A DNA stretch of 32,420 nt, from the IMG/VR virus record IMGVR_UViG_3300048573_000453, positions 1 to 32,420 of that record; one strand, 5' to 3'. Of this stretch, positions 7,053 to 26,851 are shown one piece after another (the first letter of the stretch is position 1; each line of letters starts with the position of its first letter). The translations under genes and the position numbers were made by a program. The notes beneath the pieces are model-generated. The model was given only the letters and a program-made list of their open reading frames with translations. It had not been told where the DNA came from and did not search any database. The stretch comes from a virus. Taxonomy: Duplodnaviria; Heunggongvirae; Uroviricota; Caudoviricetes.

Positions 7053-7886
7053 ATGAAATTAAAACAGTTGTTTGAATCAGTAACTAAACAAGACGTCGAA
7101 TCTATCCTTAAAAAATACGGAATTGAGAACTACACCATCAATGATGACTTGTCAGTAGATGTAGATGGTGATGTGTTCTTAAATGACCAGAACCTAAGTT
7201 CGATTCCAGTTAATTTTGGTAAGGTAAGCGGGGATTTTATCTGTTCTTCCAACCAATTAAAAACTTTAGAAGGCGCTCCAAGAGAAATCGGGGGGAAATT
7301 TGCCTGCTCTAACAACAAATTAACTTCTTTGCAAGGTGCACCTAGAGAAGTTGGTGGAGATTTTAATTGCTCTTACAACCGATTAACATCTTTACAAGGC
7401 GCACCAAGAGAAGTCGGCGGGCATTTTTATTGCTATCACAACAAATTAACTTCTCTGCAAGGTGCACCTAGAGAAGTCGGCGGGCATTTTTGGTGCTTTG
7501 CTAATCAATTAACATCTTTAGAAGGTGCACCTAGAGAAGTCGGCGGGCATTTTTGCTGCCGCAGCAACGAATTAACCTCTTTGCAAGGAGGTCCTAGAGA
7601 AGTAGGTAATGGTTTTGACTGTTCTCACAACCAATTAACCTCTTTACAAGGTGCTCCTAGAGAAGTAGGTGGTGTTTTTGATTGCTCTGAAAACCGATTA
7701 GCATCCTTACAAGGTGCACCTAGAGAAGTAGGTGAGGATTTTTTCGGCTCAAATAACCAATTAACCTCTTTACAAGGTGCACCTAGGGAAGTAGGCGGAG
7801 ATTTTAGGTGCCGTTGTAACCCAAATTTGACCTCTCTCGACGGAATCGGTAATGTCGCCGGGGAAATTAGAAGCGATCTATCATGA
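7053..7886 (+). CDS. LRR-like repeat protein 1 (10 x 21-aa units)
   Basis: MKLKQLFES leader, YTINDDLSVDVDGDV cap, repeats GGxFxCxxNxLTSLQGAPREV, C-cap LTSLDGIGNVAG. Confidence 0.9.
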   Translation: MKLKQLFESVTKQDVESILKKYGIENYTINDDLSVDVDGDVFLNDQNLSSIPVNFGKVSGDFICSSNQLKTLEGAPREIGGKFACSNNKLTSLQGAPREVGGDFNCSYNRLTSLQGAPREVGGHFYCYHNKLTSLQGAPREVGGHFWCFANQLTSLEGAPREVGGHFCCRSNELTSLQGGPREVGNGFDCSHNQLTSLQGAPREVGGVFDCSENRLASLQGAPREVGEDFFGSNNQLTSLQGAPREVGGDFRCRCNPNLTSLDGIGNVAGEIRSDLS

Positions 7887-8656
7887 AATTAAAACAATTA
7901 TTTGAATCAGTAACTTCTAAACAAGATGTGGAAACTATCTTAAAGAAGTATAAAATAACGAACTATACAATTAACGACGACTTGTCAGTTGACGTAGATG
8001 GTGATGTGTTCTTAAATGACCAGAACCTGAGTTCAATTCCTGTCAATTTCGGGAAGGTAAGCGGGGATTTTAATTGTTCTTACAGTCAATTAACTTCTTT
8101 AAAAGGGGTCCCTAGAGAAGTTGATGGTAATTTTAATTGTTATAGCAACCAATTAACTTCTTTGCAAGGTGCACCTAGAGAAGTCAGCGGGAGTTTTTAT
8201 TGCGGTAGCAATCATTTGTCCTCTTTGCAAGGTGCACCTAGAGAAGTTGGTGGGGATTTTTGGTGCTATAGCAGCCAATTAACCTCTTTGCAAGGAGGTC
8301 CTAAAGAAGTAGGTGGGGATTATGACTGCCATGACAACCAATTAACCTCTTTAAAAGGTGCACCTAGAGAAGTAGGTGAGAATTTTGATTGCTCTGAAAA
8401 CAAATTGACAACTTTAGAAGGTGCACCAAAAGAAGTCGGCGTGCATTTTTATTGCTATAACAACCAATTAACTTCCTTAAAAGGTGCACCTAGGGAAGTA
8501 GGCGGAGATTTTAGGTGCTCTACCAACAAATTAACTTCCCTACAGGGTGCTCCTAGAGAAGTCGGTGGAAATTTTTACTGCCGCAACAATGCGAATTTGA
8601 CCTCACTTGACGGGGTCGGCAATGTTGTCGGGTTCACTCTGAGCGATATATCATGA
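7883..8656 (+). CDS. LRR-like repeat protein 2 (9 units)
   Basis: Same architecture; ATGA overlap with previous gene. Confidence 0.9.
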   Translation: MKLKQLFESVTSKQDVETILKKYKITNYTINDDLSVDVDGDVFLNDQNLSSIPVNFGKVSGDFNCSYSQLTSLKGVPREVDGNFNCYSNQLTSLQGAPREVSGSFYCGSNHLSSLQGAPREVGGDFWCYSSQLTSLQGGPKEVGGDYDCHDNQLTSLKGAPREVGENFDCSENKLTTLEGAPKEVGVHFYCYNNQLTSLKGAPREVGGDFRCSTNKLTSLQGAPREVGGNFYCRNNANLTSLDGVGNVVGFTLSDIS

Positions 8657-9426
8657 AATTAAAACAGCTATTTGAATCAGTAACTAAACAAGAAGTAGAA
8701 TCCATCCTTAAAAAATACGGGATTAAGAGCTATGTCATTAATGACGACTTGTCAGTAGATGTTGATGGAGATGTGGATCTAAGTAATGAGAAGCTAAGTT
8801 CGATTCCCGTGAATTTCGGGAAAGTTAGTGGAAATTTTCGGTGCTTTGGTAACCAATTAACCTCCTTACAAGGTGCACCTAAAGAAGTCGGTGGCAGTTT
8901 TGATTGCTCTGACAACAAATTGACAACTTTAGAAGGTGCACCAAGAGAAGTCGGTGAAAATTTTTACTGCTATCACAATAAATTAACTTTTCTGCAAGGC
9001 GCTCCTGGGGAAGTTGGTGGAAATTTTTATTGCTTTCGCAACAAATTAACCTCTTTACAAGGTGCACCTAGAGAAGTTGGTAGGGTTTTTGATTGCTCTG
9101 AAAACCAATTAACTTCATTGCAAGGTGCACCGAGAGGAGCAGGTGAGGATTTTTACTGCCATTTGAACCAATTAACCTCTTTACGGGGTTCTCCTAGAGA
9201 AGTGGGTGGGGATTTTTACTGCAATGATAACCCAAATCTGATTTCCTTACAGGGTTCTCCTAGAGAAGTTGGCGGGAGTTTTTATTGCCATAATAGCCAA
9301 TTAACCTCTTTGCAAGGAGGTCCTAGAGAAGTAGGTAAGAATTTTAATTGTATTGATAACCCAAATTTGACCTCACTTGACGGAATCGGCAATGTTGCTG
9401 GGCATATTTTTAGCGACCTATCATGA
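8653..9426 (+). CDS. LRR-like repeat protein 3 (9 units, one internal cap-like unit)
   Basis: Same architecture; internal NDNPNLISL unit is 1 aa longer. Confidence 0.9.
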   Translation: MKLKQLFESVTKQEVESILKKYGIKSYVINDDLSVDVDGDVDLSNEKLSSIPVNFGKVSGNFRCFGNQLTSLQGAPKEVGGSFDCSDNKLTTLEGAPREVGENFYCYHNKLTFLQGAPGEVGGNFYCFRNKLTSLQGAPREVGRVFDCSENQLTSLQGAPRGAGEDFYCHLNQLTSLRGSPREVGGDFYCNDNPNLISLQGSPREVGGSFYCHNSQLTSLQGGPREVGKNFNCIDNPNLTSLDGIGNVAGHIFSDLS

Positions 9427-10256
9427 AATTAAAACAGCTATTTGAATCAACTTCTAAACAAGAAGTGGAATCTATCCTTAAAAAATACGGGATTGACAAC
9501 TACGTAATTAACGACGACTTGTCAATAGATGTCGATGGTGATGTGGATTTAAGTTATAGTGGGTTAAGTTCAATCCCTGTCAATTTTGGGAAAGTCGGTG
9601 GCTATTTTGATTGCTTTGATAACCAATTAACATCCCTACAAGGTGCACCTAGAGAAGTTGGTGGGGATTTTGCTTGTTATAACAACAGATTGACAACTTT
9701 AGAAGGTGCGCCTAGGGAAGTCAACGGGGATTTTGACTGCTCTTACAACCAATTAACCTCTTTGCGAGGCGGGCCTAGAGAAGTCAACGGGCGTTTTTGG
9801 TGCTATAGCAACCAATTGTCCTCTTTACAAGGCGCTCCAAGAGAAGTAGGTGGGGATTTTGATTGCTTTGACAATCAATTGTCATCCCTACAAGGTGCAC
9901 CTAGAGAAGTTGGTGGGGATTTTAATTGCTCTGATAACCAATTAACATCCTTACAGGGCGCACCTAGAGAAGTTGGTGGAGATTTTGATTGTAATCGCAA
10001 CAAATTAGTCTCCTTACAAGGTGCTCCGAGAGAAGTTGGCGGGTATTTTAGTTGCGCCTACAACCAATTAACTTCTTTGCAAGGTGCTCCTAGAGAAGTT
10101 GGCGGGTATTTTAACTGCTTTGCCAATCAATTGACCTCCTTACAAGGTGCTCCGAGAGAAGTTGGTGGGAACTTTGTATGCTCTAATAACTCAAATTTGG
10201 CTTCTCTTGACGGAATCGGCAATGTTGCCGGCAGAATTGAAAGCAACCTATCATGA
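9423..10256 (+). CDS. LRR-like repeat protein 4 (10 units)
   Basis: Same architecture; ATGA overlap. Confidence 0.9.
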   Translation: MKLKQLFESTSKQEVESILKKYGIDNYVINDDLSIDVDGDVDLSYSGLSSIPVNFGKVGGYFDCFDNQLTSLQGAPREVGGDFACYNNRLTTLEGAPREVNGDFDCSYNQLTSLRGGPREVNGRFWCYSNQLSSLQGAPREVGGDFDCFDNQLSSLQGAPREVGGDFNCSDNQLTSLQGAPREVGGDFDCNRNKLVSLQGAPREVGGYFSCAYNQLTSLQGAPREVGGYFNCFANQLTSLQGAPREVGGNFVCSNNSNLASLDGIGNVAGRIESNLS

Positions 10257-10960
10257 AATTAAAACAATTATTTGAATCAACTTCTAAACAAGAAGTAAAA
10301 ACAATCTTAAAGAAGTATAAAATAACGAACTATACAATTAACGATGACTTGTTAGTCGATGTCGATGGGAATGTGTTCTTAAATGACAAGAACCTGAGTT
10401 CGATTCCAGTTAATTTTGGGAAGGTAAGCGGCGATTTTAATTGCTCTTTGAACCAATTAACTTCTTTAAAAGGGGTTCCTAGAGAAGTTGATGGCAATTT
10501 TAATTGCGCTTACAGCCAATTAACTTCCCTACAAGGCGCGCCTAAAGAAGTTGGTGGAGATTTTATTTGCTCTCATAACCAATTAACTTCTTTACAAGGT
10601 TCACCTAGGGAAGTAGGTGGAAATTTTTATTGCTCTCATAACCAATTAACATCCTTACAAGGCGCACCTAGAGAAGTCGGTGGAAATTTTTATTGCTATC
10701 GCAACAAATTAACCTCTTTGCAAGGTGCATCTAGGGAAGTGGGTGGGAGTTTTGATTGCTCTGAAAACCAATTAACATCCTTACAAGGTGCACCGAGAGA
10801 AGTAGGCGGGGCTTTTAATTGCTCTGGCAACCAATTAACCTCTTTAGAAGGTGCACCTAGAGAAGTAGGTGGGGATTTTTATTGCCGTTTTAACCCAAAA
10901 TTGACTTCTCTTGACGGAATCGGCAATGTTGCTGGGCACATTTTTAGCGATATATCATGA
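10253..10960 (+). CDS. LRR-like repeat protein 5 (8 units)
   Basis: Same architecture; 235 aa = 277 minus 2 units. Confidence 0.9.
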   Translation: MKLKQLFESTSKQEVKTILKKYKITNYTINDDLLVDVDGNVFLNDKNLSSIPVNFGKVSGDFNCSLNQLTSLKGVPREVDGNFNCAYSQLTSLQGAPKEVGGDFICSHNQLTSLQGSPREVGGNFYCSHNQLTSLQGAPREVGGNFYCYRNKLTSLQGASREVGGSFDCSENQLTSLQGAPREVGGAFNCSGNQLTSLEGAPREVGGDFYCRFNPKLTSLDGIGNVAGHIFSDIS

Positions 10961-11792
10961 AATTAAAACAATTATTTGAATCAACTTCTAAACAAGAAGT
11001 AGAATCCATTTTAAAGAAATATAAAATAACAAACTATACAATTAACGATGACTTGTCTGTAGATGTGGATGGAGATGTGGATCTAAGTCATAAGATGTTA
11101 AGTTCAATTCCTGTCAATTTCGGGAAAGTTAGCGGGGGGTTTTGATTGCTATAACAACCAATTAACTTCTTTAAAAGGTGCACCGAGAGAAGTCGGCGGG
11201 AATTTTTATTGTTCTGAAAACAAATTAGCCTCTTTACAAGGGCACCTAGGGAAGTAGGTGGGGATTTTTATTGCAATAACAACCAATTAACCTCTTTAAA
11301 AGGTGCGCCTAGAGAAGTTATTAAAAGTTTTGGATGCGCTCACAACAGATTAACAACTTTAGAAGGTTGCCCTAAGGAAGTTAATGGACATTTTTTTGAT
11401 TGCTCTTATAACAAATTAACTTCTTTAAAAGGAGCGCCTAACGAAGCTTTTGGAAATTTTGATTGCAAAGATAACCAATTAACTTCCTTACAAGGTGCAC
11501 CTAGGGAAGTAGGCGGGTATTTTGATTGTAAAGATAACCAATTAACTTCTTTAAAAGGTGCACCTAGGGAAGTAGGCGGGTATTTTAAATGTCATAACAA
11601 CCAATTAACCTCTTTACAAGGAGCTCCTAGGGAAGTTGGTGGGCATTTTTTTTGCACTTACAACCAATTAACTTCTTTACAAGGTGCACCTAGAGAAGTC
11701 GGCGGGAATTTTATTGCTGTAACAATCCGATGCTGAAAATGCTTGACGGAATCGGCAATGTTGCCGGGGAAATTGAAAGCGACCTATCGTGA
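10957..11792 (+). pseudogene. LRR-like repeat protein 6 (10 units), three frameshifts
   Basis: Extra G in G6 at 11134-11139 gives TGA 11143-11145; -1 at CAAGGGCACCT (~11237-11247); missing T in AATTTTATTGC (~11707-11717); C-cap ..GEIESDLS* ends 11792. Confidence 0.9.
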
Positions 11793-12553
11793 AATTAAAA
11801 CAGTTATTCGAATCAGTGTCTAAACAGGATGTAGAATCCATCCTAAAGAAATACGGGATTAAAAATTACGCAATTAACGATGACTTGTCAGTCGATGTTG
11901 ATGGGGATGTGGATTTGCGTCATAGGCAATTAGAAGAAATCCCAGTCAATTTCAGCAAAGTCAGCGGGGATTTTTATTGCCAGTTTAGCAAATTAACTTC
12001 TTTGCAAGGTGCACCTAGAAAAGTCGGAGGGGATTTTATCTGCTCTTCCAACCAATTAAAAACTTTAGAAGGTGCACCTAGAGAAGTGGGCGGGGATTTT
12101 ATCTGCTCTTCCAACAAATTGGCCTCTCTAAAAGGCGCTCCTAAAGAAGTCGATGGAGATTTTTCATGCGCTGATAACCAATTAACTTCTTTACAAGGTG
12201 CTCCTAGAGAAGTCAACGGGCGTTTTTGGTGCTATAGCAACAAATTGACCTCTTTGCAAGAAGGTCCTAGAGAAGTAGGTGGGGAGTTTAACTGCTCTGC
12301 CAACAAATTGACCTCTTTGCAAGGAGGTCCTAGAGAAGTAGGCGGAGACTTTGAGTGCTTTGCAAATCTATTAGTATCTTTACAGGGGGCACCAAGAGCA
12401 GTTGGCGGACATTTCGTGTGCGCCGATAATCCACATTTGATTTCCTTGCAAGGCGCGCCTAGAGAAGTCGGTGGGGACTTTGTCTGCTTTGATACCCCAA
12501 ATTTGACTTCTCTTGACGGAATCGGCAATGTTTCCGGAAGAATTAAGCGTTAG
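11789..12553 (+). CDS. LRR-like repeat protein 7 (9 units)
   Basis: GTG start overlapping the previous TGA; C-terminus 3 aa shorter (GRIKR*). Confidence 0.9.
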   Translation: MKLKQLFESVSKQDVESILKKYGIKNYAINDDLSVDVDGDVDLRHRQLEEIPVNFSKVSGDFYCQFSKLTSLQGAPRKVGGDFICSSNQLKTLEGAPREVGGDFICSSNKLASLKGAPKEVDGDFSCADNQLTSLQGAPREVNGRFWCYSNKLTSLQEGPREVGGEFNCSANKLTSLQGGPREVGGDFECFANLLVSLQGAPRAVGGHFVCADNPHLISLQGAPREVGGDFVCFDTPNLTSLDGIGNVSGRIKR

Positions 12554-12581
12554 ATAAAAAGCAAGCGGGCCTAAAAGCTTA

Positions 12582-13565
12582 TCACGAACGAGTCAAAAAT
12601 GCAGGCATTGGTGATACGCCAGTCATAACTGAAATAATATGCAAATGGTCGTCATACAATTCTAAGGAATTCAGAACCGTAGTCAGAGGAAACCATTCGC
12701 ACTTTGCTGCATCATCTGCTCCATTAGCACGAGGTAGACTTCCATCTGGATTCGGGCTCACTCGAATGTATACGGCAAGTGTATTCCGTGGAATTCCAAA
12801 TGAGCGAGCGGGCGAATCAAATATTTGTGTTTTTACAATGCTTCCGCGAAGAATCTTCTCGGGCACTCGAACATTGGTTTCCTCTTTAAGTTCGCGAATG
12901 GCGCAATCAAGGAATGTCTCATTGCCATTTTTAAATCCACCAGGAAGTGCCCATTGACCTGCCCCAGGCGCCCGTGCTCGTTGGATCAATAGAACATGGC
13001 CCTGACACTCAAGCACGGTATCTCCGCAGTTGAAATTCAGGGTTTCTGGGTATGGATATGAAGCAAAGGTCTTGGTTTCTTTTTGATAGTAATCCCAATC
13101 CTGCTTGACCGATATAGGCATTGCTGGGTCATTTGATACAAACATTTCGTTGCGGATTTGAGTCGCATTGATATCAATTTCGGCTGTGATATCAGAAAAT
13201 TTCCAATCAGGAAACCATGACAAGTAGAGATTTCCATCTTTGTAGTGACCAAACAAAATTGGCTTTTCATCTTCTACAAAATGTTCTACTGTGGCCCGAA
13301 CATCTGTGATCCACTGGCTATCGCTATAAGGGTAGTCATTGAGCGGAACGATCTCAACGTTGGTGATACCGTGAGAATGCAGAATCATTGCGATGTATGC
13401 TTTTCGCTCTATGTATGACCAGGGGTTTTTGATGCTTCTACATTGATTTGCAGAGCCAACAAGAAGAATAAGCGTTTCTACTTGTGATGCAGCAACTGTG
13501 ATTGCATGGATATGACCATCATGCAGTGGCTGGAAACGACCGATTAGGAAACCGATTTTCGACAT
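12582..13565 (-). CDS. nadM: Bifunctional NMN adenylyltransferase / ADP-ribose pyrophosphatase (NadM-Nudix; KVP40 NatV-like)
   Basis: IGRFQPLHDGH (HxGH), VGSAN..KNPWS, ATQIR, Nudix box ALPGGFKNGNETFLDCAIRELKEET, GADDA. Confidence 0.95.
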   Translation of the reverse strand: MSKIGFLIGRFQPLHDGHIHAITVAASQVETLILLVGSANQCRSIKNPWSYIERKAYIAMILHSHGITNVEIVPLNDYPYSDSQWITDVRATVEHFVEDEKPILFGHYKDGNLYLSWFPDWKFSDITAEIDINATQIRNEMFVSNDPAMPISVKQDWDYYQKETKTFASYPYPETLNFNCGDTVLECQGHVLLIQRARAPGAGQWALPGGFKNGNETFLDCAIRELKEETNVRVPEKILRGSIVKTQIFDSPARSFGIPRNTLAVYIRVSPNPDGSLPRANGADDAAKCEWFPLTTVLNSLELYDDHLHIISVMTGVSPMPAFLTRS

Positions 13566-13600
13566 TTTTAAGCTCCTTTAGAATGTCTTTGTTATTTAAT

Positions 13601-13975
13601 TTATTTTTTCAACGATTTGAAAAAGTTTGCTGGTGCTGCTTTGAGCATTGCTTTGAAAACTGCTCTCGCTGGAAGTTCATATTGTTCCTCCGAAGGCCAA
13701 CCTGCAACTGTAGGATTTTCTGATGTCCGGCCACACCGAAGGGTCAATTGACTGTCAAGTGCTTCTTCGCCAATCATCACCATCTCAATAGATGGCTCAG
13801 GGACAACAAGGGCCTGTTCTGAACCAGTAAAGTTCATTTCACTGACATAGAAGCACTTGCGTTCGCCGTCTTGATACTCAATGCAAATACCATCTTCATC
13901 TTTCAAGATGTCAGTTGCATGTTCACATGGGAGAAAATCTTTACCTACACCAATAATTTTAGCAACAGTTTTCAT
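13601..13975 (-). CDS. Hypothetical protein
   Basis: 124-aa ORF downstream of the promoter at 14004, upstream of nadM. Confidence 0.65.
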   Translation of the reverse strand: MKTVAKIIGVGKDFLPCEHATDILKDEDGICIEYQDGERKCFYVSEMNFTGSEQALVVPEPSIEMVMIGEEALDSQLTLRCGRTSENPTVAGWPSEEQYELPARAVFKAMLKAAPANFFKSLKK

Positions 13976-14003
13976 GATTTTTCTTTCAGTGGCATTTTGA
14001 TTG

Positions 14004-14012
14004 ATTATACCA
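14004..14012 (-). promoter_or_regulatory. Extended -10 promoter for the 13975-nadM unit
   Basis: TGGTATAAT; TTCACT at 17-nt spacing; short uORF MPLKEKS* overlaps ATG 13975. Confidence 0.6.
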
Positions 14013-14092
14013 TCAAAATAGCCTCAAGTGAATTGAAGCATGAAGTTTTAGCTTTCTTTAGTAGAAAGAACACGTGCGGGTTGCCCCCAGTT

Positions 14093-15052
14093 TTACGATA
14101 GGTCGCCTTCAATTCGACCAGCTACATTGCCTATTCCGCCAAGTGAGGCCAAATTTGGGTTATCAAGGCAAATAAAATCTCCGCCTACTTCCTTAGGAGC
14201 GCCCTGCAAAGAGGTTAATTCGTTGCTGCGGCAGAAAAAATGCCCACCCACTTCTCTAGGCGCGCCTTCTAGGGATGTTAATTGGTTGTAAGAGCAATTG
14301 AAGCTCCCACCAACTTCCCTAGGCGCACCTTCTAAAGATGTTAATTGGTTTTCAGAGCAGTAAAACTCAAAATAAACTTTTCTAGGAGAACCTTTTAGCG
14401 AAGTTAATTTATTTTTACCACAACTAAAAGTCCCACCGACGTCTCTAGGCGCACCTTCTAGGGATGCCAATTTATTACTAAAGCAATAAAAATCCCCACC
14501 TACTTCCCTAGGTGCTCCTTGTAAAGAGGTTAATTTGTTTTCAGAACAATAAAAATTTCCACCGACTTCTCTAGGTGCACCTTTTAAAAAAGTTAATTGG
14601 TTTTGAGAACAATTAAAAGCCCCAAATACTTCCCTAGGCGCACCTTCTAGGGATGCCAATTTATTACTAAAGCAATAAAAATTCCCACCGACATCTCTAG
14701 GTGCACCTCCTAGAGATGTTAATTGGTTGAAAGAGCAATTAAAATCCCCGCCTACTTCTCTAGGTGCACCTTGTAGGGATGTTAATTGGTTGCCAGAGCA
14801 ATTAAAAGCCCCGCCTACTTCCCTAGGCACGCCTTTTAAAAAAGTTAATTTATTAAAAGCGCACTTAAAGTCTCCACTGACCTTCCCAAAATTGACAGGA
14901 ATTGAACTCAGGTTCTCGTCATTTAAGACCACATCCCCATCAACATCAACCGACAGGTCATCATTGATAACGTAGTTCTCTATCTTATATTTCTTTAAGA
15001 TGGACTCTACACCTTGTTTAGAAGTTGATTCAAATAAATGTTTTAATTTCAT
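14093..15052 (-). CDS. LRR-like repeat protein 8 (12 units)
   Basis: MKLKHLFES leader; 319 aa = 277 plus 2 units. Confidence 0.9.
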   Translation of the reverse strand: MKLKHLFESTSKQGVESILKKYKIENYVINDDLSVDVDGDVVLNDENLSSIPVNFGKVSGDFKCAFNKLTFLKGVPREVGGAFNCSGNQLTSLQGAPREVGGDFNCSFNQLTSLGGAPRDVGGNFYCFSNKLASLEGAPREVFGAFNCSQNQLTFLKGAPREVGGNFYCSENKLTSLQGAPREVGGDFYCFSNKLASLEGAPRDVGGTFSCGKNKLTSLKGSPRKVYFEFYCSENQLTSLEGAPREVGGSFNCSYNQLTSLEGAPREVGGHFFCRSNELTSLQGAPKEVGGDFICLDNPNLASLGGIGNVAGRIEGDLS

Positions 15053-15819
15053 GATAGATCGCTTCTAATTCGTCCGGTTATATTGCCGATTCCGTCAAGG
15101 GATTGTAAATTTGGGTTTTTAGCGCAATCAAAATGCCCGCCAACTTCTCTAGGAGCACCTTCTAAAGATGTTAATTGGTTGTAAGAGCAGTAAAAACCCC
15201 CACCGACTTCTCTAGGAGCACCTTCTAAAGATGTTAATTGGTTGTCGGTACAATAAAAATTTCCATCGACTTCCCTAGGTGCGCCTTGTAAAGAAGTTAA
15301 TTGGTTTTGAGAACAATTAAAATTCCCGCCAACTTCTCTCGGCCCGCCCTTCAAAGAAGTCAATTTGTTGTTATAACAATTAAAACTACCGCCGACTTCT
15401 CTAGGTGCACCTTGCAAAGAAGTTAATTTATTGTCAGAACAATAAAAATTCCCGCCGACTTCTCTAGGTGCACCTTGTAAAGAGACCAATTGGTTACGAG
15501 AGCAATCAAAACGCCCGCTAATTTCCCTAGGCGCACCTTGTAAAGAAGCAAATTTATTAAAAGAGCAATTAAAATTACCGCCAACTTCCCCAGGCGCACC
15601 TTGTAAAGATGTTAATTTATTGTCAGAACACTTAAAGTCTCCACTGACTTTCCCAAAATTAATAGGAATTGAACTCAGGTTCTCGTCATTTAAATTCACA
15701 TCTCCATCGACATCTACAGACAAGTCATCATTGATAACGTAGTTCTCGATCTTATATTTCTTTAAGATAGATTCTACATCTTCTTTAGAAGTAGATTCGA
15801 ATAATTGCCTTAATTTCAT
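15049..15819 (-). CDS. LRR-like repeat protein 9 (9 units)
   Basis: Start reassigned to ATG 15819 (MKLRQLFES), 1 nt after the upstream stop. Confidence 0.9.
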   Translation of the reverse strand: MKLRQLFESTSKEDVESILKKYKIENYVINDDLSVDVDGDVNLNDENLSSIPINFGKVSGDFKCSDNKLTSLQGAPGEVGGNFNCSFNKFASLQGAPREISGRFDCSRNQLVSLQGAPREVGGNFYCSDNKLTSLQGAPREVGGSFNCYNNKLTSLKGGPREVGGNFNCSQNQLTSLQGAPREVDGNFYCTDNQLTSLEGAPREVGGGFYCSYNQLTSLEGAPREVGGHFDCAKNPNLQSLDGIGNITGRIRSDLS

Positions 15820-15820
15820 T

Positions 15821-17662
15821 TTACTGACCGCGCAAAGATCTATCAATTATGGGTTTTTTATTATCTGTTGATGGCCATGAATAAATGTACTCGCCTGCAT
15901 GATCTTTAACAATTAGGAAGGTATAGTTTGCAAAAGTATAAACCTTCATATCTGCTTTATATCCAGGAATACGTTCTTGGAATTCCATTGTTGCGTCAGT
16001 GACTTTAGTTCCAAACTTGACCAAAAACGATGCAACTGAATCGATTTCTTTTTTGGAGTTGGGGCCTCCGCCAATATGAGCAACGACCTGAATGTCTTCA
16101 ATTCGGGTCGTAGTAAAAGGTGAAAACACTTGGCGACCAATCGCGCGGATGCCCTGACTCATATACCCCGGGAGATTGCGAACCATATGCCATTTGGGAT
16201 CTTCTTTGCCAGCAGCTTTCAATGCAGTGTTAATGACCCGTGGCAAATCAGCTGCGGTGGGAATCATGACATCATAGCTAGCATCAATTATGTCTTCGAG
16301 CCCTGATAGATCCATGCCCATAAACAAGAGCAACGATTCCATATCCATGCGAATATTTTTAGTTGCATTTCCTGTGTCAGCAGCCGAAGCAGTGTTAAAC
16401 TTTATAGACCTTTTTGCATCTCCACCAAAAGGCTTGCTTTTTGCAGCTGGTGCATTTTTACCATCAGTGCTTGAGAATTTAATGTCATCTAGCTTGGCAC
16501 GAAACGTGTCTTTCGGGATTGTACGCTTTGGACCAGGGCCATCATCGGCTTCCGCCATAAATTTTAAAAATTTGGTTCGATAAGATTCTTTAACGGCCGC
16601 AGTTTCTAAGGGTTTGACAGAGTAATCCGAATTCAAATCTTTGCTTGTTAAGCCCATTAATTTGTAGTCACCTGAACCATAGCCACCGCCCTGAAATTTG
16701 AGGTTTTTGCTAACAATGATTGTTCTTAGTACAGAGTGAAACTCGGGCTCAATGGCGCCATTGTGTTTACCTTTTAGTTGAGCTATAGTTTTTAGGTTTT
16801 TTGTCAACTCGAAAGTTGCCCCTGGCAAACCTTCTGGGCCCTGAAGCGACCAAATTACCAAACTTCCATTTGTTACGTCTTTTGCATAAGTTCCTACACA
16901 GTGGGCCATGACTTCGCCCTCAGTTTTAACAAACTCTGCAGACAGAGCCTTTACTAATCGGAAACCAGGCGGCAATGGTTGCTCCATATGAACAATTTCG
17001 AAATCTTCGTCCCGCTTTAGCAATTTAAACTTCTGCTTCGCTATGTCTTTTGATAACTTTGCAGATTTGCGGCTTAGATACGCGTGATACGCCCGTGCAT
17101 TACCAATAGCAACAACTGGTGAAACCTTTGTGAAGTCTTTTAAGAAATACAGGTCGGGTAAGATTTCAACGTTGCGGTCTTCTTGATTTATCGCAACAGC
17201 ATTCAAATAGTCTATTAGCTCATCAGTTACTTTTTGTAAGATGCGCGGCATGCGAATTTTGCGGCCACCGGCAAAAATGTGTGCTGTATCCGGGCTTTTG
17301 CGAATGTATTCTGGAAACATTGCTAAAAAGTTTCCGCGCTCAATATGCGGGAACTCTTCTTCCAGGTCATCAATCACCGCATTAAATTCAGGGTACAACA
17401 TGCTTTTAAATTTTTCTTCACTGGCGTATGCACCACCATGAGAGTCGTACCCGACTGCTTCGTTTTTGATCCAGTTCTTAAAGTTTGAATTAAACCATGT
17501 TCTGACTTTGGCTTGATTAGAACGCGGCTCAACACTCTTCTTCATAAACGTGTTAAAAATTTCGTTAAATGACGCAAAGCGTTCAATTACATCGCCAGAT
17601 GGGTCGGTGAGTTCGATTTCGACGCTACCGCCATTTGCAAAATTGGCTTCGAATAAATGCAT
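15821..17662 (-). CDS. 613-aa protein with PcfJ-like domain; putative head-packaged protein
   Basis: KTEGEVMAHCVGTY..IWSL..ATFEL..IAQLKGKHN is the PcfJ-like pattern; N-terminal MHLFEA; internal KFLKFMAEA; upstream TAAATA. Confidence 0.65.
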   Translation of the reverse strand: MHLFEANFANGGSVEIELTDPSGDVIERFASFNEIFNTFMKKSVEPRSNQAKVRTWFNSNFKNWIKNEAVGYDSHGGAYASEEKFKSMLYPEFNAVIDDLEEEFPHIERGNFLAMFPEYIRKSPDTAHIFAGGRKIRMPRILQKVTDELIDYLNAVAINQEDRNVEILPDLYFLKDFTKVSPVVAIGNARAYHAYLSRKSAKLSKDIAKQKFKLLKRDEDFEIVHMEQPLPPGFRLVKALSAEFVKTEGEVMAHCVGTYAKDVTNGSLVIWSLQGPEGLPGATFELTKNLKTIAQLKGKHNGAIEPEFHSVLRTIIVSKNLKFQGGGYGSGDYKLMGLTSKDLNSDYSVKPLETAAVKESYRTKFLKFMAEADDGPGPKRTIPKDTFRAKLDDIKFSSTDGKNAPAAKSKPFGGDAKRSIKFNTASAADTGNATKNIRMDMESLLLFMGMDLSGLEDIIDASYDVMIPTAADLPRVINTALKAAGKEDPKWHMVRNLPGYMSQGIRAIGRQVFSPFTTTRIEDIQVVAHIGGGPNSKKEIDSVASFLVKFGTKVTDATMEFQERIPGYKADMKVYTFANYTFLIVKDHAGEYIYSWPSTDNKKPIIDRSLRGQ

Positions 17663-17696
17663 AATAAGATCCCTTGTAAAAAAATTGACATAAATG

Positions 17697-17704
17697 TATT
17701 TATT
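17697..17704 (-). promoter_or_regulatory. T4-like late promoter candidate
   Basis: AATAAATA on - strand 34 nt upstream of ATG 17662, just downstream of a strong terminator. Confidence 0.5.
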
Positions 17705-17714
17705 AGGGAAGTAA

Positions 17715-17750
17715 AAAGAAGGCCCGACAACGAATTGTCGGGCCTTCTTT
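17715..17750 (-). terminator. Rho-independent terminator
   Basis: AAAGAAGGCCCGACAA-TTCG-TTGTCGGGCCTTCTTT perfect 16-bp stem followed by more T on - strand. Confidence 0.9.
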
Positions 17751-17771
17751 AAAGCTTTGCTTACTTAGAAA

Positions 17772-18008
17772 TTAAGTCGTGTTTCTAGGAACGGTTTCAC
17801 TTCCAAAACATGGAACCCCATTTTCATGGTAGTTTTTCCATTTGTCGGTATAGTAACCGATCTCTCCACACTGAGTGCATTTAAACGCGCCAATTGAAAT
17901 GTCTGCTTGTGTCGATTTTCCCTCAACCCATTCTTCGGTATAGTAAGATGGGTCCCAATCATCCTCAACATAGACATATTTTCCTGGTTCCCTATGAGTG
18001 CAGCTCAT
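17772..18008 (-). CDS. Small hypothetical protein with CxxC
   Basis: MSCTHREPGK..FKCTQCGEIG; ATGA-coupled start at 18008. Confidence 0.65.
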   Translation of the reverse strand: MSCTHREPGKYVYVEDDWDPSYYTEEWVEGKSTQADISIGAFKCTQCGEIGYYTDKWKNYHENGVPCFGSETVPRNTT

Positions 18009-20196: not shown

Positions 20197-20202
20197 GGGG
20201 AG

Positions 20203-20211: not shown

Positions 20212-20239
20212 TGATTTCGGAAGCATCCACTACTTTAAG

Positions 20240-21248: not shown

Positions 21249-21270
21249 TGTTTATTTTCCTTGGTATGAC

Positions 21271-21609
21271 TTAAAACTGGTCTTTTTTGACTAAGCATAT
21301 TGACAGTACTTTTCCGCCGGTGACACAATGAACACTCCAGCCTTCAAATTCTGGGAAATAAACTTCAGAGAAATCGCTTTCGAATTCATCGCCGTTATCA
21401 AGCGTTATGCCTGGAAAACGCTTCCATTGCTCAATTTCCGGAATGTAAACTTCCCTACATGTAGATACTGGATACGCCCTGCCGCTATCTGTCCAGACGT
21501 CCAAGTAAAAAGCGATAATGTTTTCGGCACGAACCCTGACATATCCGGCATCTCCAATTTTAATGGGCTTGCCGAAATGTTTTATTTCTACTTTAATTTC
21601 ATCACTCAT
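21271..21609 (-). CDS. Hypothetical protein
   Basis: 112-aa ORF in an operon-like run. Confidence 0.65.
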   Translation of the reverse strand: MSDEIKVEIKHFGKPIKIGDAGYVRVRAENIIAFYLDVWTDSGRAYPVSTCREVYIPEIEQWKRFPGITLDNGDEFESDFSEVYFPEFEGWSVHCVTGGKVLSICLVKKDQF

Positions 21610-22074: not shown

Positions 22075-22082
22075 TCCTTAAT

Positions 22083-22598
22083 TTATTTTTTGCCCCATTT
22101 GATTACTGTTACCGGCTTGGGGATTACTTCATCGTAATCAGTATCCCATTCTGTTCCACTTTCCGAAGCGTAAAACCCTGTAATTCTTACGAGCCCGACC
22201 AACAGATCGGACGGGTCCTGGTATTCAAGCACGGCAATTACTTGTTCAGCATGCTCTCCTGCGCCCTCATACCCGCCTTTACAATCAATTGCGCAGAACC
22301 AATATTTTGTGCCATCGCCCCTGGTAAATGCAAAGCCTTCTCCATCAGAAGCATCTTCCCAAGTTTTGGCCAATAATTGGACATAATTTCCGTTGCAATT
22401 TGCCGAAAGATTTGGGGGAATATTTCCGCTCGTAATTTGCTGTCGAATCAGAATTGGGCATTGATCGCTTGAACCAAAAGAAAGTTTCTGTTCAAACGTA
22501 AAGGTAATTCCATTATCCAAGATCTCAAAAACCTCGTCGATACTAATGTCTTCTTGGGATTCAACAAACTCTTTGAAAATCTTTACTGCTTTGCTCAT
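22083..22598 (-). CDS. Hypothetical acidic protein, paralog of 21610-22074
   Basis: KYWFCAIDCKGGYEGAGE..RITGFYASESGTEWD..EVIPKPVTVIKW. Confidence 0.75.
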   Translation of the reverse strand: MSKAVKIFKEFVESQEDISIDEVFEILDNGITFTFEQKLSFGSSDQCPILIRQQITSGNIPPNLSANCNGNYVQLLAKTWEDASDGEGFAFTRGDGTKYWFCAIDCKGGYEGAGEHAEQVIAVLEYQDPSDLLVGLVRITGFYASESGTEWDTDYDEVIPKPVTVIKWGKK

Positions 22599-22679
22599 GA
22601 TCTGCTCCTTAAAATTACAAAAAACATGCTCATTATGAGCTTCTTAATTTACTAGAACTGTTTTTAGCAACATTCTAAA

Positions 22680-23036
22680 TTACAACTGGCTCTGAATCGC
22701 CAATGAAAGTTTGCGGGCAAGAAGACCTGCGTCACCATTCCAGCCATCTTTACGTTCATTGATGAAATTGTCAACGTCAGATCGGGTGAAAGAAAAGAGA
22801 ATAGTCCAGACAATACGCATCTGCTCCTGTTCGGATTTCTCTGGGAAATTTAGAGAATACGGCTTGATCATAGCTGATTCCAAATCTTTATCAAGCAAAT
22901 ACAGGGGCTTCAATCCCTCAAAAAAATCCGTAGGATCAATGCCCGGTTTGAAGTCACTTTCGTCATAGTAAACCCATCTAGGTTTATCATTTATCGGATC
23001 TTCATCCCAAAGTCGCCATGCAATAGGTTTAATCAT
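22680..23036 (-). CDS. Two-module hypothetical protein (PxAW..PLY module plus 63-aa module)
   Basis: N-terminal KPIAW..KPLY module; C-terminal 63 aa duplicated at 20005-20196. Confidence 0.7.
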   Translation of the reverse strand: MIKPIAWRLWDEDPINDKPRWVYYDESDFKPGIDPTDFFEGLKPLYLLDKDLESAMIKPYSLNFPEKSEQEQMRIVWTILFSFTRSDVDNFINERKDGWNGDAGLLARKLSLAIQSQL

Positions 23037-23040
23037 GATT

Positions 23041-24096
23041 TTACCCCAGATTGACAGATTCTTCTACTTTCTTAAACCAGAACTCTCGCGCCTTTGTCGC
23101 AAGAGGACCACCGATATCCTTGGGTTCAATTTGCGAGGCCGCCATCACATCTAATTCTTCCTTCAAAATATCACCTACCACAAGCTTGATATATGCACCA
23201 GTGGACTTCGCACTAATCTCAAGTTGCAATTCTACAGCCTTTTGGAACATCTGCTCAAGTCGATTTTCAGTTGCTGCATACTCAATGAAGTCAGCAATAC
23301 TCTTAACTTTTTCGACATCTACTTCAGCAACAGTCTTGACTTTAGAAACACTATGTTTTTCTCCCTTTATCTTCATCATCACCGACAAAACATCAAAGCC
23401 ACAGTCCTGACCTTCTTCGACAACCCATACTACGCCTTCGCCGATAAGGGAACCAATTTCTGCATCGGGCTTGAAGTAGCGAGCAACAGGGCAATCAGCT
23501 TCAACTTCTTGAGTAATACGAACCAACTCATTTTGCATCAGTGCCGGATTGGAAAAGTCGATTTCGATTTTCCATGTCTTAAAGAAATACTTGTCAAAGA
23601 CAGAAGGATGAACTTCGAACTTAAAGACTTCATCATAGACTACTTTTGGTTCCCAGTCGGTGCACTCAGCATCTTCAGAAACGCGAATACCGAATACCAT
23701 GAAGAATTTGTCGAGGCCAGTCAAACCGACGCCGGATTGGATACTACCACCCGCCCATTCGCCGAATACTTGAATATAACCAGTTTTGCCCGGACATGCC
23801 TTTTCGATTCGATTGAACATGTCATTCAGTTCAGCACGAATGGAATTCCCCCAGAACCAGAAACCTGCATTATCTGATTCCAGCGACAGAATGCGTTCGC
23901 GAGACTGGAAGTAAATGTCTTCGGCAGTTCCGCCGACTTTGCGGACAATTCCACCATTGGACCCGTGTGCCTTGATAAAACCGACCATTTTCAGTTTCGG
24001 TACTGGCTTCCCGTGGTACTTGGCGCTAGATTGAATCTGCTTGATAGCATCGCGAAATTGGCCGATGCTTGGGAATTTAATCATAGGGTTTGTCAT
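23041..24096 (-). CDS. rnl2: RNA ligase, Rnl2 family
   Basis: Nucleotidyltransferase motifs I KAHGSN, III QVFGEW, IIIa FMVFGI, IV EGVVW, V KIKGEKH; C-terminal Rnl2-like helical domain (TENRLEQ..). Confidence 0.8.
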   Translation of the reverse strand: MTNPMIKFPSIGQFRDAIKQIQSSAKYHGKPVPKLKMVGFIKAHGSNGGIVRKVGGTAEDIYFQSRERILSLESDNAGFWFWGNSIRAELNDMFNRIEKACPGKTGYIQVFGEWAGGSIQSGVGLTGLDKFFMVFGIRVSEDAECTDWEPKVVYDEVFKFEVHPSVFDKYFFKTWKIEIDFSNPALMQNELVRITQEVEADCPVARYFKPDAEIGSLIGEGVVWVVEEGQDCGFDVLSVMMKIKGEKHSVSKVKTVAEVDVEKVKSIADFIEYAATENRLEQMFQKAVELQLEISAKSTGAYIKLVVGDILKEELDVMAASQIEPKDIGGPLATKAREFWFKKVEESVNLG

Positions 24097-24124
24097 GATA
24101 TAAGTTTTTGTTTAAAGTTGAATT

Positions 24125-24850
24125 TTACACTGTTTTCCGATACTTGTCAATCCCGGCTTTCACAATTGCAGCGAATTCTACGTACCATGATTCAGGCAAC
24201 CCAGTCTCTTTGACTGCGAATTCGCGATCGTCGTCAAACTCAATAGTATGCATGGAATCATCAGGCGCTTCGAGACTGACTTCGCCATCAAGAACCCTAA
24301 GATTGATAACCGCGAGGCGCTCAGGCGCAAGTCGCTCATCATTCATCAGAGTGACAGTCAAGTCAAGAAACGGGAACTTCTTGGCAACTTCTGACCACTC
24401 AGCATAGACCTGTTCAATTGACGGCCACTTACCAATGTTGTCTTCATAATGAATCCTACCATCGGGATGGCACCAACCATGAGGGCCATAGATGAAGCAG
24501 CTCGATCCCCAGTCAGTCGCAACGTATTCGTGAGCGAATACGCCAAGAATTTTCCGAAGTTCCTCTACTGCGTCCCAGTCCGTCTGGGGATCGGCAGCAT
24601 CGTGTGGTTCGCCGTCAACAACAAGAGTATCGAGACCAGAGATCTTGCGATAGTTTTCATTGAATTTTTTATCGTTGCCGCCAGAGTAACAGTAGGCATC
24701 AGTAAAAAATGGATCAGTACAAAAGATTATTTCTTTTGCTTGATCCACAGTCACATTCTTCCCAGTAACTAGCATCTGGGGCCACTTACCAAGACCATGC
24801 TTAGCAATGGTTTTGATTTTGATATTCAGTTCTTGTTCAGTCATTTGCAT
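24125..24850 (-). CDS. Hypothetical phage protein
   Basis: 241-aa ORF (GPHGWCHPDG, NIGKWPS) in an operon run. Confidence 0.7.
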   Translation of the reverse strand: MQMTEQELNIKIKTIAKHGLGKWPQMLVTGKNVTVDQAKEIIFCTDPFFTDAYCYSGGNDKKFNENYRKISGLDTLVVDGEPHDAADPQTDWDAVEELRKILGVFAHEYVATDWGSSCFIYGPHGWCHPDGRIHYEDNIGKWPSIEQVYAEWSEVAKKFPFLDLTVTLMNDERLAPERLAVINLRVLDGEVSLEAPDDSMHTIEFDDDREFAVKETGLPESWYVEFAAIVKAGIDKYRKTV

Positions 24851-24853
24851 ATT

Positions 24854-25375
24854 CTACTCCAGAAAATCGCATTTTACGCCACGTCTCTCAAGAAAATCCA
24901 GTCCTCTTCGATCTCGGTATTCTTCGCCATAAACAATACGAACAAATCCAGCAGAAAACATCATTCTGGAACATGGTACACAAGGTGACATTGTAACATA
25001 CATTGTTGCACCGACACAAGAGCTATTGCTTCGGGCCATTTTCATCAAACAGTTTTCTTCTGCATGAATGACATTATCTTTGGTCGTTAGATAATACTTG
25101 CCCTTTTCATCCTCAAATGGATAGTCCGTTGGATCTGGGATATACTGACCGCCCCAATGGTCATCGACTGGAACACCGGAATAATAAACCCTGTCTTCGC
25201 AGGTATTATTCTCTCCAGACGGGGTTCCATTAAACCCGATAGCAAGAATGTTGCCGTCTTTTTCCACAATTGAACCTACCTTACGCCTTTCGGCATAAGA
25301 CAGAAGTGCAGTGCGTTTTGCGACGTCCATAAAATAACGATCAAATTTTTCTTGCTTATCCATAACTAGCCCCAA
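24854..25375 (-). CDS. cd: dCMP deaminase
   Basis: KVGSIV, GFNGTPSG, HAEEN and SPCVPC zinc ligands, YGEEYRD. Confidence 0.92.
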   Translation of the reverse strand: MGLVMDKQEKFDRYFMDVAKRTALLSYAERRKVGSIVEKDGNILAIGFNGTPSGENNTCEDRVYYSGVPVDDHWGGQYIPDPTDYPFEDEKGKYYLTTKDNVIHAEENCLMKMARSNSSCVGATMYVTMSPCVPCSRMMFSAGFVRIVYGEEYRDRRGLDFLERRGVKCDFLE

Positions 25376-25376
25376 T

Positions 25377-25565
25377 TTAAAGCTTTAAGACGTCTAGTGT
25401 TTTTCTTGCCAGAATTTGGCATGCCTTACGATCTCGATTCCAAGTTCCGTCAGCTCGCTGATCAGTTGCAATTAACTCGAGAACATCCATGCAATGGCCC
25501 AATTTAATTTGAGCGGTAATCAATTCATGCGTGAGATGTTCTTTAGTTTCAGGTAATTCAAGCAT
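25377..25565 (-). CDS. Small hypothetical protein
   Basis: 62-aa ORF coupled to its neighbours. Confidence 0.6.
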   Translation of the reverse strand: MLELPETKEHLTHELITAQIKLGHCMDVLELIATDQRADGTWNRDRKACQILARKTLDVLKL

Positions 25566-25971
25566 GCTTATGTTCGATATAGGAAATCATGCTTTCAATC
25601 TCTTCAGAACATACTAGCACGCAGAACTTTTTAATTGCAATACTGGGCATTTGAATCTGGTCGGTAAACGTTCGAATGTATACAAGGGCACAGGCTGCCC
25701 GGGCAGTCTCAACCAAGGATGCTTCTGGATCATACAGATTCCATTCTACTTCAATACTTTTCCCGGTTGCCAAAGCTTCAGCAGCAGTTTTATTACCGAT
25801 ACTCTTACAGAAGTTTTCATCATCACGGCAGGCAGCGACTGCAATACGAATGTTTTTGCCAAAATTCAGTTCAAACACGAGAACGAATCCGCCTTTTGCA
25901 AAAAGTTGCCCGTCTTCATTACGGGGACGGACATGGCGAAAGACGGTTACGGTTTCTGTGGAATTTTTCAT
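25558..25971 (-). CDS. Hypothetical protein
   Basis: 137 aa, AACRDDENFCKSIG motif; first gene after the promoter at 26047. Confidence 0.65.
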   Translation of the reverse strand: MKNSTETVTVFRHVRPRNEDGQLFAKGGFVLVFELNFGKNIRIAVAACRDDENFCKSIGNKTAAEALATGKSIEVEWNLYDPEASLVETARAACALVYIRTFTDQIQMPSIAIKKFCVLVCSEEIESMISYIEHKHA

Positions 25972-26023
25972 GAGTGGCTTTCTTAAATGAGTTTGGTTAG
26001 GGGCAAGTTATTCGCATGGTTTA

Positions 26024-26031
26024 GGTAAATA
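26024..26031 (+). promoter_or_regulatory. Late promoter candidate for the ART gene
   Basis: GGTAAATA 43 nt upstream of ATG 26075. Confidence 0.35.
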
Positions 26032-26046
26032 ACTTAAACACGAGTT

Positions 26047-26055
26047 ATTATACCA
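26047..26055 (-). promoter_or_regulatory. Extended -10 early promoter
   Basis: TGGTATAAT. Confidence 0.6.
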
Positions 26056-26074
26056 CAGCAATTTTGGGAACTTC

Positions 26075-26851
26075 ATGAAACCGCAAAATATTTTTCTTTC
26101 TCTTAGCGAAGCCTACGAAACTGCAAAGTTTCCAAAAATTACGGTAAACGGAGTTCTTAAGCATGAGAATAATTCGCAAGGCAAACCTATACACCACACT
26201 TACGAAGGCATACAACACTTTTACAAATGGTTTGGCAAATCCAAGGCTGTTGATAAACATGGTCGCCCAGAAGTCTTTTACCACGGAACAAAAGCGGAAA
26301 TTCAAGCTTTTTCGAATGCTTTTATTGGCAAAGGAACAGATGCATATGGAATGGGCCATTATTTCATAAATGACCCAAACGCTGCGAGTGCTTATGCAAC
26401 AAATAATAATTTGGGAACTCCAAATGTGGTACCAGTTTACATCAAAATGGAGTCGCCAATAGTGTATGGCGATGACAGTTCGTTTTCTGCCTCAATAATT
26501 AAGAAACTGATTGTTGGTTCAAATAAGCATAAAGAGGTTTTAAATGATTTTGGCGAAGTCTCTAGAGAAGGACTTGAAAAGGTTTTAGCAAATGCAGTTT
26601 CTAATTATGAGGACTTCCCAAAATTGCAACAGATGTTTATGCTGTTTAACGATTTCTATGATGAACGGGATGCTGAAACGTTTGTTGCGAATCTTCAGAG
26701 AGCCTCTAAGCATGACGGGGTTTTAGTAAATTTTGGAACAAACACCATTTTGACCGTCTTTGATCCCGGGAATGTCAAGTCTGCTATTGGAAATCGTGGC
26801 ACTTATTCAAGAAAATCTCATGACTTATCAGAAGCAAGCAGAGCTGCATGA
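26075..26851 (+). CDS. ADP-ribosyltransferase-like protein (ART-PolyVal type)
   Basis: SKAVDKHGRPEVFYHGT, GMGHYF, A..YA, VPVYIKMESP, HDGVLV, VFDPGNVKSAIGNRGTYS match the ART domain of polyvalent proteins; isolated on + strand. Confidence 0.7.
   Translation: MKPQNIFLSLSEAYETAKFPKITVNGVLKHENNSQGKPIHHTYEGIQHFYKWFGKSKAVDKHGRPEVFYHGTKAEIQAFSNAFIGKGTDAYGMGHYFINDPNAASAYATNNNLGTPNVVPVYIKMESPIVYGDDSSFSASIIKKLIVGSNKHKEVLNDFGEVSREGLEKVLANAVSNYEDFPKLQQMFMLFNDFYDERDAETFVANLQRASKHDGVLVNFGTNTILTVFDPGNVKSAIGNRGTYSRKSHDLSEASRAA

Follow-up and report, generated by a model that had tools for sequence, protein, structure and literature searches.

Introduction

The capsid targeting sequence (CTS) and the polymorphic loci encoding internal proteins are textbook biology of bacteriophage T4, and the T4 late promoter TATAAATA is read by gp55 and gp33 together with the sliding clamp. 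Here we describe a stretch of DNA of 32,420 nucleotides (nt), called the window below, which lies at the very start of a virus contig of 96,420 bp (IMG/VR record IMGVR_UViG_3300048573_000453, designated G000). In the window, nine leucine-rich repeat (LRR) genes, a gene for a PcfJ-like protein of 613 residues and a gene for an ADP-ribosyltransferase (ART) of 258 residues form three units, each preceded by the hexamer TAAATA, and their products start with short peptides whose last residues are L-x-E, the next one being S or A. We propose that the LRR, PcfJ-like and ART proteins are expressed late, addressed to the capsid by these N-terminal tags, packaged and injected at infection. To this statement as a whole, which draws on sequence comparison, structure prediction and analogy with T4, we assign a probability of about 0.5.

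In T4, the protease gp21 cleaves after L/I-x-E, and capsid targeting sequences are 10–19 residues long (PMC9026906). Examples from the T4 genome (NC_000866) are the N-termini MKTYQEFIAE/A of IPII and IPIII, MAKINELLRE/S of gp24, MLKEQLIAE/A of gp22, MELITELFDE of Alt and MNEPQLLIE/T of gp21 (here and below, a slash follows the glutamate of the motif). The internal proteins of T-even phages are highly diverse defence proteins in which only the targeting sequence is conserved (Rao and Black, PMC3012670). In phiKZ-like phages (phiKZ, 201phi2-1, SPN3US), ejection proteins carry propeptides that are cut by a gp21-related protease (PMC5694885). ARTs of the H-Y-D ART-PolyVal family have been predicted to be delivered together with the invading DNA (Iyer et al., 2017, PMC5512222). 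Our literature search found no paper describing the tag reported here, or virion-borne LRR arrays, in jumbo phages.

The TAAATA Element and Probable Late Transcription

TAAATA is found at 7019..7024 (+), in the context cATAAATAc, 34 nt 5′ of the first LRR gene; at 17697..17702 (−; aATAAATAcatttat, with the octamer context aATAAATA), 40 nt 5′ of the start of the PcfJ-like gene; and at 26026..26031 (+; gGTAAATAa), 49 nt 5′ of the ART start. A preliminary description of this DNA had placed the element at these same three sites, where it is indeed present, but had regarded it as specific to the three units, which does not hold. A fourth copy (13593..13598, −; tTAAATAa) lies 33 nt 5′ of an NMNAT-Nudix gene (13565..12582), and elsewhere on the contig the element precedes at least ten others. 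The status of this fourth copy is uncertain, since TAAATA was not seen 5′ of the NMNAT-Nudix ortholog in the related locus L005.

On both strands of the contig, TAAATA is depleted overall, with 40 copies observed against approximately 127 expected from composition. Nevertheless, 26 of the 40 copies are intergenic, and 16 occur in the sense orientation at −12 to −70 before open reading frames (ORFs), in windows that make up 4.2% of the contig sequence and that hold the reverse complement three times. TAAATA is the top enriched sense hexamer at these positions (9.5-fold), as it also is in the best relative that we could reach, a 292-kb IMG/VR contig designated G001 (49 of 131 copies, 11.8-fold). 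The enriched hexamers TGACGG, ACGGAA and AATCGG were rejected as promoter candidates, as they belong to the LRR coding sequences, whose 3′ ends are conserved.

The element is conserved where its flanking sequence is not. It is kept as TATAAATAcatttat before the PcfJ-like ortholog of L005 (70% identity), and it occurs as cTAAATAg at about −37 before the orthologs of L008, L009 and L012 (47–52% identity). ART orthologs with 63–65% identity are preceded by cATAAATAa at about −62, and the divergent GTATAAT element of this locus is kept as well. In L008, L009 and G001, TAAATA precedes sheath, tube-like, fibre-like and head-protease genes, and G001 encodes a homolog of gp55, the late sigma factor of T4 (E 1.9e-9). 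Because of this enrichment, this conservation, the structural genes behind the element and the gp55 homolog, we read (A/G)TAAATA as, very probably, the form that the T4 late promoter TATAAATA takes in this lineage. Comparison with relatives thus bears out the late, T4-type reading of the preliminary description: a chance origin of TAAATA can be dismissed, and the predicted late transcription of the three units is well supported.

The second enriched class consists of extended −10 elements, (G)GTATAAT, of which 29 of 32 copies are on the − strand, in front of the main clusters of genes. These elements precede most other units, in agreement with the two promoter classes distinguished earlier. 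One of them (26047..26053, −) serves as the putative promoter of a divergent early-type unit (25971..) and is conserved in the ART ortholog loci. Directly upstream of the PcfJ promoter, a GC-rich hairpin followed by a T-run (17713..17747, −), recognized by eye, has the shape of an intrinsic terminator and would insulate the PcfJ unit from upstream transcription. A scan with generic sigma-70 and terminator patterns missed this hairpin (17747–17713) and returned promoter counts at chance level.

Elsewhere on the contig, two full TATAAATA octamers are located at 67952–67966 (−), just upstream of an IS607-type serine recombinase gene, and the G001 copy of this element (85–88% identical proteins) is also associated with TAAATA. 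A gene of 138 codons at contig 77186–77602 (+), equivalent to L003:4766-5182, is preceded by cATAAATA and runs counter to the replication module that encloses it; its G001 homolog is likewise TAAATA-led.

The N-Terminal Tag of the LRR Proteins

All nine LRR genes, eight of them intact and one frameshifted, begin with MKL(K/R)(Q/H)LFES, as the preliminary description had it. There is good evidence, from alignments and a structural model, that residues 1–8 act as a separate functional signal. The AlphaFold2 (AF2) model of LRR1, built on 30 homologs, has a mean predicted local distance difference test score (pLDDT) of 95; values below 50 are confined to residues 1–8 (MKLKQLFE), and the disorder ends at the fold boundary. 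In the 30 LRR homologs (39–78% identity), M1, K2 and E8 are at least 90% conserved. Among 101 metagenomic homologs sharing the N-module, 76 contain [LI]xE within their first 16 residues, as against 12.5% of control windows, and in the tagged homologs the glutamate is mostly found at position 8 and followed by S or N. Some LRR homologs have no tag, their first residues being those of the first helix, which shows that the fold can do without it. Conversely, several homologs with some 150 extra residues or with other domains after the tag (P0015, P0039, P0114, P0120 and P0122) still have it at the very N-terminus; P0015, which starts MKLKSLFEN, is itself TAAATA-led. Within the window the tag codons vary synonymously (CAG/CAA, TTG/CTA/TTA, TTT/TTC), which shows that selection acts on the peptide.

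The same tag is found on other proteins. In G001 it heads 14 genes, including an LRR-GH19 hydrolase fusion and non-LRR proteins, and an N-terminal L[FL]E[ASNT] is observed 11 times in this genome where 0.29 would be expected. Three tagged LRR genes follow the G001 capsid gene in the same orientation, behind TAAATA. As for the fusion gene (G001 L025:12117-13616, +), it encodes a tagged LRR, a hydrophobic stretch and a GH19 (chitinase/lysozyme-type) domain, and its product is possibly a wall-degrading cargo or a lysis protein. Note also that small, apparently acetyltransferase-like paralogs are encoded among tRNA genes, in L002 (contig 59776–65788) and at G001 5872–6402. Their N-termini are tag-like (MKLSTLFEM, MKLSEIARV and MLLFELLGIQES), and the G001 member, MKLTDLFET, is TAAATA-led.

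Seven of the LRR genes form one + strand operon (7053–12553). LRR1 (7053..7886; 277 residues), starting MKLKQLFES, is the first gene and matches the LRR_4 profile (37.1 bits, cut-off 27); it is followed by LRR2 (7883..8656; 257 residues), LRR3 (8653..9426; 257 residues), LRR4 (9423..10256; 277 residues) and LRR5 (10253..10960; 235 residues), all with the common leader. LRR6 (10957..11792) is the broken copy: its leader and first 62 codons are in frame, after which LRR units that look intact go on in two other frames, with at least three frame changes, up to a normal C-terminal end. LRR7 (11789..12553; 254 residues), again with the leader, uses a GTG start. On the − strand (15819–14093) lie LRR9 (15049..15819; 256 residues from the ATG at 15819; MKLRQLFES) and LRR8 (14093..15052; 319 residues; MKLKHLFES), the last gene of the PcfJ operon. 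The LRR genes are translationally coupled through ATGA stop-start overlaps. The proteins are solenoids of 25–34 kDa with 21-residue repeats and a conserved cysteine in each repeat. A Foldseek search with the LRR1 model returned YopM, IpaH3 and SspH2 as the nearest solved structures (E 3e-5 to 1e-4), a likeness that is one of fold class only.

The nine paralogs differ in their repeat surfaces, whereas their whole N-module of about 60 residues is conserved. This raises the possibility that the LRR proteins are external parts of the virion, used for host recognition or decoration, in which the N-module docks on fibres or capsid and the variable surface binds the host, PcfJ and ART being unrelated late genes. 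Late promoters and numerous paralogs with variable surfaces would fit such a role, as would the occurrence of PcfJ and LRR genes among fibre-like and sheath genes in L007–L009 and the fusion of one G001 member to a GH19 wall hydrolase. However, the LRR proteins are small single solenoids that have neither a trimerisation or baseplate-attachment domain nor a signal peptide, residues 1–8 are unstructured and do not belong to a docking domain, and the tag is also carried by probable acetyltransferase-like and other non-LRR proteins of G001. We therefore consider external display improbable in comparison with capsid packaging.

In L005:8676-14776, where the PcfJ-like protein is 70% identical to that of the window, the gene after PcfJ is a single mini-LRR gene of 110 codons, with NMNAT-Nudix, a gene of 388 codons and Nampt coming directly behind it. 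As this locus has only one mini-LRR, the large LRR arrays of the window look like an expansion inserted into a neighbourhood of NAD-salvage genes.

The PcfJ-Like Protein and the ADP-Ribosyltransferase

The PcfJ-like gene (15821..17662, −) encodes a protein starting MHLFEANFANGG, so that the MHLFEA start reported previously is correct. It matches PF14284 at residues 199–303 (40.7 bits, cut-off 25) and consists of an N-domain, a disordered linker (349–436) and a C-domain; a Foldseek search of its model against solved folds gave no match with E ≤ 0.001. In 13 PcfJ-like orthologs (42–71% identity), E5, A9, N10 and G12 are invariant, and in the AF2 model residues 1–11 have pLDDT values below 50. 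With this pairing of invariance and disorder, the N-terminus carries the signature of a linear motif. LRR9 starts one base after the PcfJ stop codon, which indicates that PcfJ, LRR9 and LRR8 constitute one unit, and PcfJ is directly followed by a tagged LRR gene in three lineages (the contig, L005 and G001/L012).

The ART gene (26075..26851, +) encodes a protein of 258 residues that begins MKPQNIFLSLSEA, as had been described, and that matches PF18760 (E 2.8e-24; 86.9 bits, cut-off 31.2). In 15 ART sequences H70 and Y107 are invariant and D214 is nearly so, giving the H-Y-D triad defined for this family (PMC5512222). In every locus seen, the gene is a lone + strand gene in a − strand early-type block. 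FLSL(S/C)E(A/T) is kept among close ART orthologs. The protein was rejected as a homolog of T4 Alt: it belongs to the H-Y-D ART-PolyVal clade, not to the R-S-E one of Alt, ModA and ModB, with its catalytic motifs R, S-x-S and E-x-E. It may still work like Alt.

The tags of the three families thus read MKLKQLFE/S (LRR), MHLFE/A (PcfJ-like) and ...LSLSE/A (ART), with lengths of 8, 5 and 12 residues, respectively. What the preliminary description called one shared leader is shared only in part, as an N-terminal L-x-E-(S/A) ending that corresponds to the cleavage motif of T4 gp21, and a common leader in the full sense was overstated for the ART. Support is strongest for the LRR proteins, intermediate for the PcfJ-like protein and weakest for the ART.

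Several other TAAATA-led genes of the contig resemble ARTs or carry similar N-termini. A protein of 372 residues (L002:4165-5283, −; contig 56585–57703), encoded behind cATAAATA, starts MGRFIDFLKES (LKE/S) and has YRG, SxS and ExE-like motifs, which follow one another as they do in R-S-E ADP-ribosyltransferases. No match to its sequence was returned from Pfam, PHROGs or the PDB, and the only leads, to the ADPrib_exo_Tox and Mod-like families, come from Atlas feature and structure searches; it is possibly a second, Alt-like ART. A protein of 204 residues (L002:8804-9418, −; contig 61224–61838), behind gTAAATA, starts MLLKEIL and contains the motifs FRG and SWS; it is possibly another small ART, of the Mod-like kind. 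Finally, a protein of 333 residues (L002:252-1253, −; contig 52672–53673), behind cATAAATA, has the N-terminus ...INYLSE/AG and, after it, a low-complexity stretch that is very acidic; it matched no family, and its one structural model, from the Atlas, is of low confidence.

Source Contig and Relatives

The window belongs to an uncultured jumbo phage related to T4. CheckV estimates the completeness of the 96-kb contig at approximately 27%, and most of its genes are on the − strand. It encodes T4-type replication genes (clamp loader, ligase and tRNA enzymes), and its clamp loader has its closest counterparts (37–43% identity) in the jumbo phages RsoM2USA, Atu_ph07, PA5oct and XacN1. On this 96-kb contig, being about 27% complete, no head genes, gp21-type protease or gp55 late sigma factor were found. 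G001 has 34 ORFs in common with the contig, at about 50% identity, and its replication module is collinear.

In G001 we identified a Gp23-type capsid protein (E 2e-89), whose closest match is the RsoM2USA capsid protein (53%), a Peptidase_S77 (gp21-type) protease (E 5.6e-28) and a scaffold homolog with 19 [LI]xE sites. The capsid propeptide contains four [LI]xE, the last of which, LVE/T, aligns by eye with the maturation site of T4 gp23. Complex prediction for the G001 protease and residues 1–65 of one of the tagged LRR proteins of this relative scored 0.01, as compared with a mark of 0.34.

Searches of a phage collection yielded little. Neither megablast with positions 7000–18000 nor tblastn with the PcfJ-like protein gave a match in it, and tblastn with LRR1 retrieved distant LRR genes only, among them a copy in Vibrio phage SRILMA that begins MCTFEEWF, with the tag absent. 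Viral contigs scanned with the single PcfJ-like sequence gave no match; PcfJ-like relatives among them were recovered by an alignment-based scan.

A Proposal for Capsid Packaging

We propose the following scheme. The three units (LRR1–7; the PcfJ-like gene with LRR9 and LRR8; ART-PolyVal) would be transcribed late from gp55-type (A/G)TAAATA promoters. The tag, a short, conserved and unstructured peptide with L-x-E at its end and S or A next to it, would hold each protein on the scaffold core during prohead formation. It would subsequently be cut off behind its glutamate by a prohead protease of the gp21 type. The mature proteins would stay inside the head and leave it with the DNA at infection. 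Late promoter use, core binding, cleavage, packaging, ejection and an anti-defence role are all steps that we infer. The combination of a late promoter with floppy N-terminal peptides that end in a head-protease motif makes it probable that the products are loaded into the capsid. The capsid-targeting reading of the preliminary description survives insofar as the tags are N-terminal, disordered, conserved and L/I-x-E-ended, the LRR tag is portable and the clade has a gp21-type protease; it is weak for the leader of the ART. Taken one by one, packaging has a little better than an even chance for the LRR proteins, slightly less than an even one for the PcfJ-like protein, and it is doubtful for the ART. 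The further idea that delivery would take place before host defence is triggered is pure conjecture.

Several points weigh against this proposal. The full octamer TATAAATA is present at none of the three promoters, which read cATAAATA, aATAAATA and gGTAAATA (it occurs at five sites only in the contig), and a plain TATAAT lies at 7035–7040, between TAAATA and LRR1. In the contig, [LI]xE[AS] in the first 16 residues is found for 5 of 14 TAAATA-led genes and for 9 of 128 others, of which six are LRR genes located farther down in those operons, but the Fisher test on TAAATA-led genes was post hoc and the [AS] rule was set after the data had been seen. The LRR proteins are acidic (pI 4.4–5.9), unlike the basic internal proteins of T4. 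The five-residue tag of the PcfJ-like protein is shorter than any T4 capsid targeting sequence, and its match alone is weak, because among unrelated proteins of the contig an L[FL]E[ASNT] within 12 residues of the start is expected 0.29 times by chance. The ART, with its 12-residue tag, has in common with the others only L-x-E-A, which is within chance alone, and several of its distant orthologs are devoid of an N-terminal extension. Lastly, as the contig lacks the head region, the head machinery has been deduced from G001, which is only about 50% identical.

Another explanation would be that there is no system at all, the LRR N-termini being alike through recent paralogy, the PcfJ and ART motifs arising by chance and TAAATA being an accident of AT-rich DNA. 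The conservation of the N-module of the nine paralogs well beyond the tag, the chance expectation for the PcfJ motif and the brevity of the ART match all agree with this. However, two genomes show a roughly 10-fold excess of TAAATA at the position and in the orientation proper to a promoter, orthologous genes have kept it in front of them, and conservation of the tag extends over 101 distant homologs and over differing architectures. This largely refutes such an explanation, which we judge very improbable.

A stronger competitor accepts the late promoters, which support it equally well, and holds that the products remain in the infected cell, acting for example in late anti-defence or in the timing of lysis. 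The N-terminal peptide would then be a degron or stability signal, a partner contact or a translation aid, with a coincidental L-x-E. Packaging is itself inferred, the charge of the LRR proteins and the poor conservation of the ART tag are easily accommodated, and many well-translated genes have A-rich codons in second and third place (ATGAAA...). An A-rich start does not, however, account for the conserved positions, E8 and the L/I at −2 from it, which are those of the protease motif, nor for a disordered tag that ends exactly where the fold begins, nor for its presence on unrelated G001 proteins and on G001 LRR genes adjoining the head module. We thus rate late cytoplasmic action as rather unlikely, and less probable than packaging.

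If the tag does address proteins to the head, the late promoter and the rule MKLxxL(F/L)E would allow the injected arsenals of uncultured giant phages to be read from metagenomes, tandem LRR arrays would represent a new class of delivered host-binding proteins, and the tag would offer a handle for loading foreign proteins into capsids, as the T4 CTS already does. The late-promoter consensus is in itself useful for annotating this phage group. In a more tentative extension of the proposal, phages of this clade might carry in their capsids a ready-made, diversified set of LRR binders (nine paralogs here), plus ARTs and a PcfJ-like protein, all under one cleavable tag, to be injected as first-strike inhibitors of varied host defence proteins. 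LRR repeat surfaces would then be exchanged by recombination, and the array would correspond to a much expanded, binder-library version of T4 IPI.

Comparison With Known Systems

The closest parallel to the tags is found in the CTS-bearing proteins of T4 (IPI, IPII, IPIII and Alt) and the propeptides of gp24, gp22 and gp21, all of which are cleaved by gp21 (PMC9026906; PMC3012670). As in T4, the peptides described here are short and N-terminal, with an MK.. start and an L/I-x-E ending followed by a small residue; they belong to late genes, and the clade has a gp21-type protease and a gp23-type capsid protein. A further likeness to the ip loci of T-even phages is that one tag is found on unrelated or highly variable proteins. 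The differences concern the sequence (MKTYQEFIAE in T4, MKLKQLFE here), the length, our tags being shorter (8 residues, and 5 in PcfJ), and the cargo, which is an acidic LRR array, a PcfJ-like protein and an H-Y-D ART instead of small basic proteins. The present system is, moreover, known from its genes alone. Giant phages of the phiKZ-like group also load head proteins by way of N-terminal propeptides that are cut after a glutamate. Their propeptides, however, mostly exceed 100 residues and end in the motif S/A/G-x-E, and these phages represent another lineage, with a virion RNA polymerase and a phage nucleus.

The putative promoter resembles the T4 late promoter TATAAATA in having a TAAATA core about 27–55 nt before the starts, without a −35 partner, and, in relatives, structural genes behind this core, together with the gp55 homolog of G001. 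It differs in its consensus, with (A/G)TAAATA in the present contig and, in both G001 and L008, CTAAATA, and the motif is known from sequence alone.

With regard to the individual proteins, the solenoid class and a repeat length of approximately 20–22 residues are common to the phage LRR proteins and the LRR domains of YopM, IpaH and SspH (PDB 4ow2, 3cvr and 3g06). Differently from these, the products of the phage genes, which are 18–28% identical to them, have a conserved cysteine in each repeat and contain neither an E3 ligase domain nor a type III secretion signal. The ART of the window belongs to the H-Y-D ART-PolyVal family of the polyvalent proteins (PMC5512222), but its ART domain stands alone in 258 residues instead of forming part of a giant multidomain protein, and its delivery, as proposed here, would make use of a short tag and not of a MuF/polyvalent scaffold.

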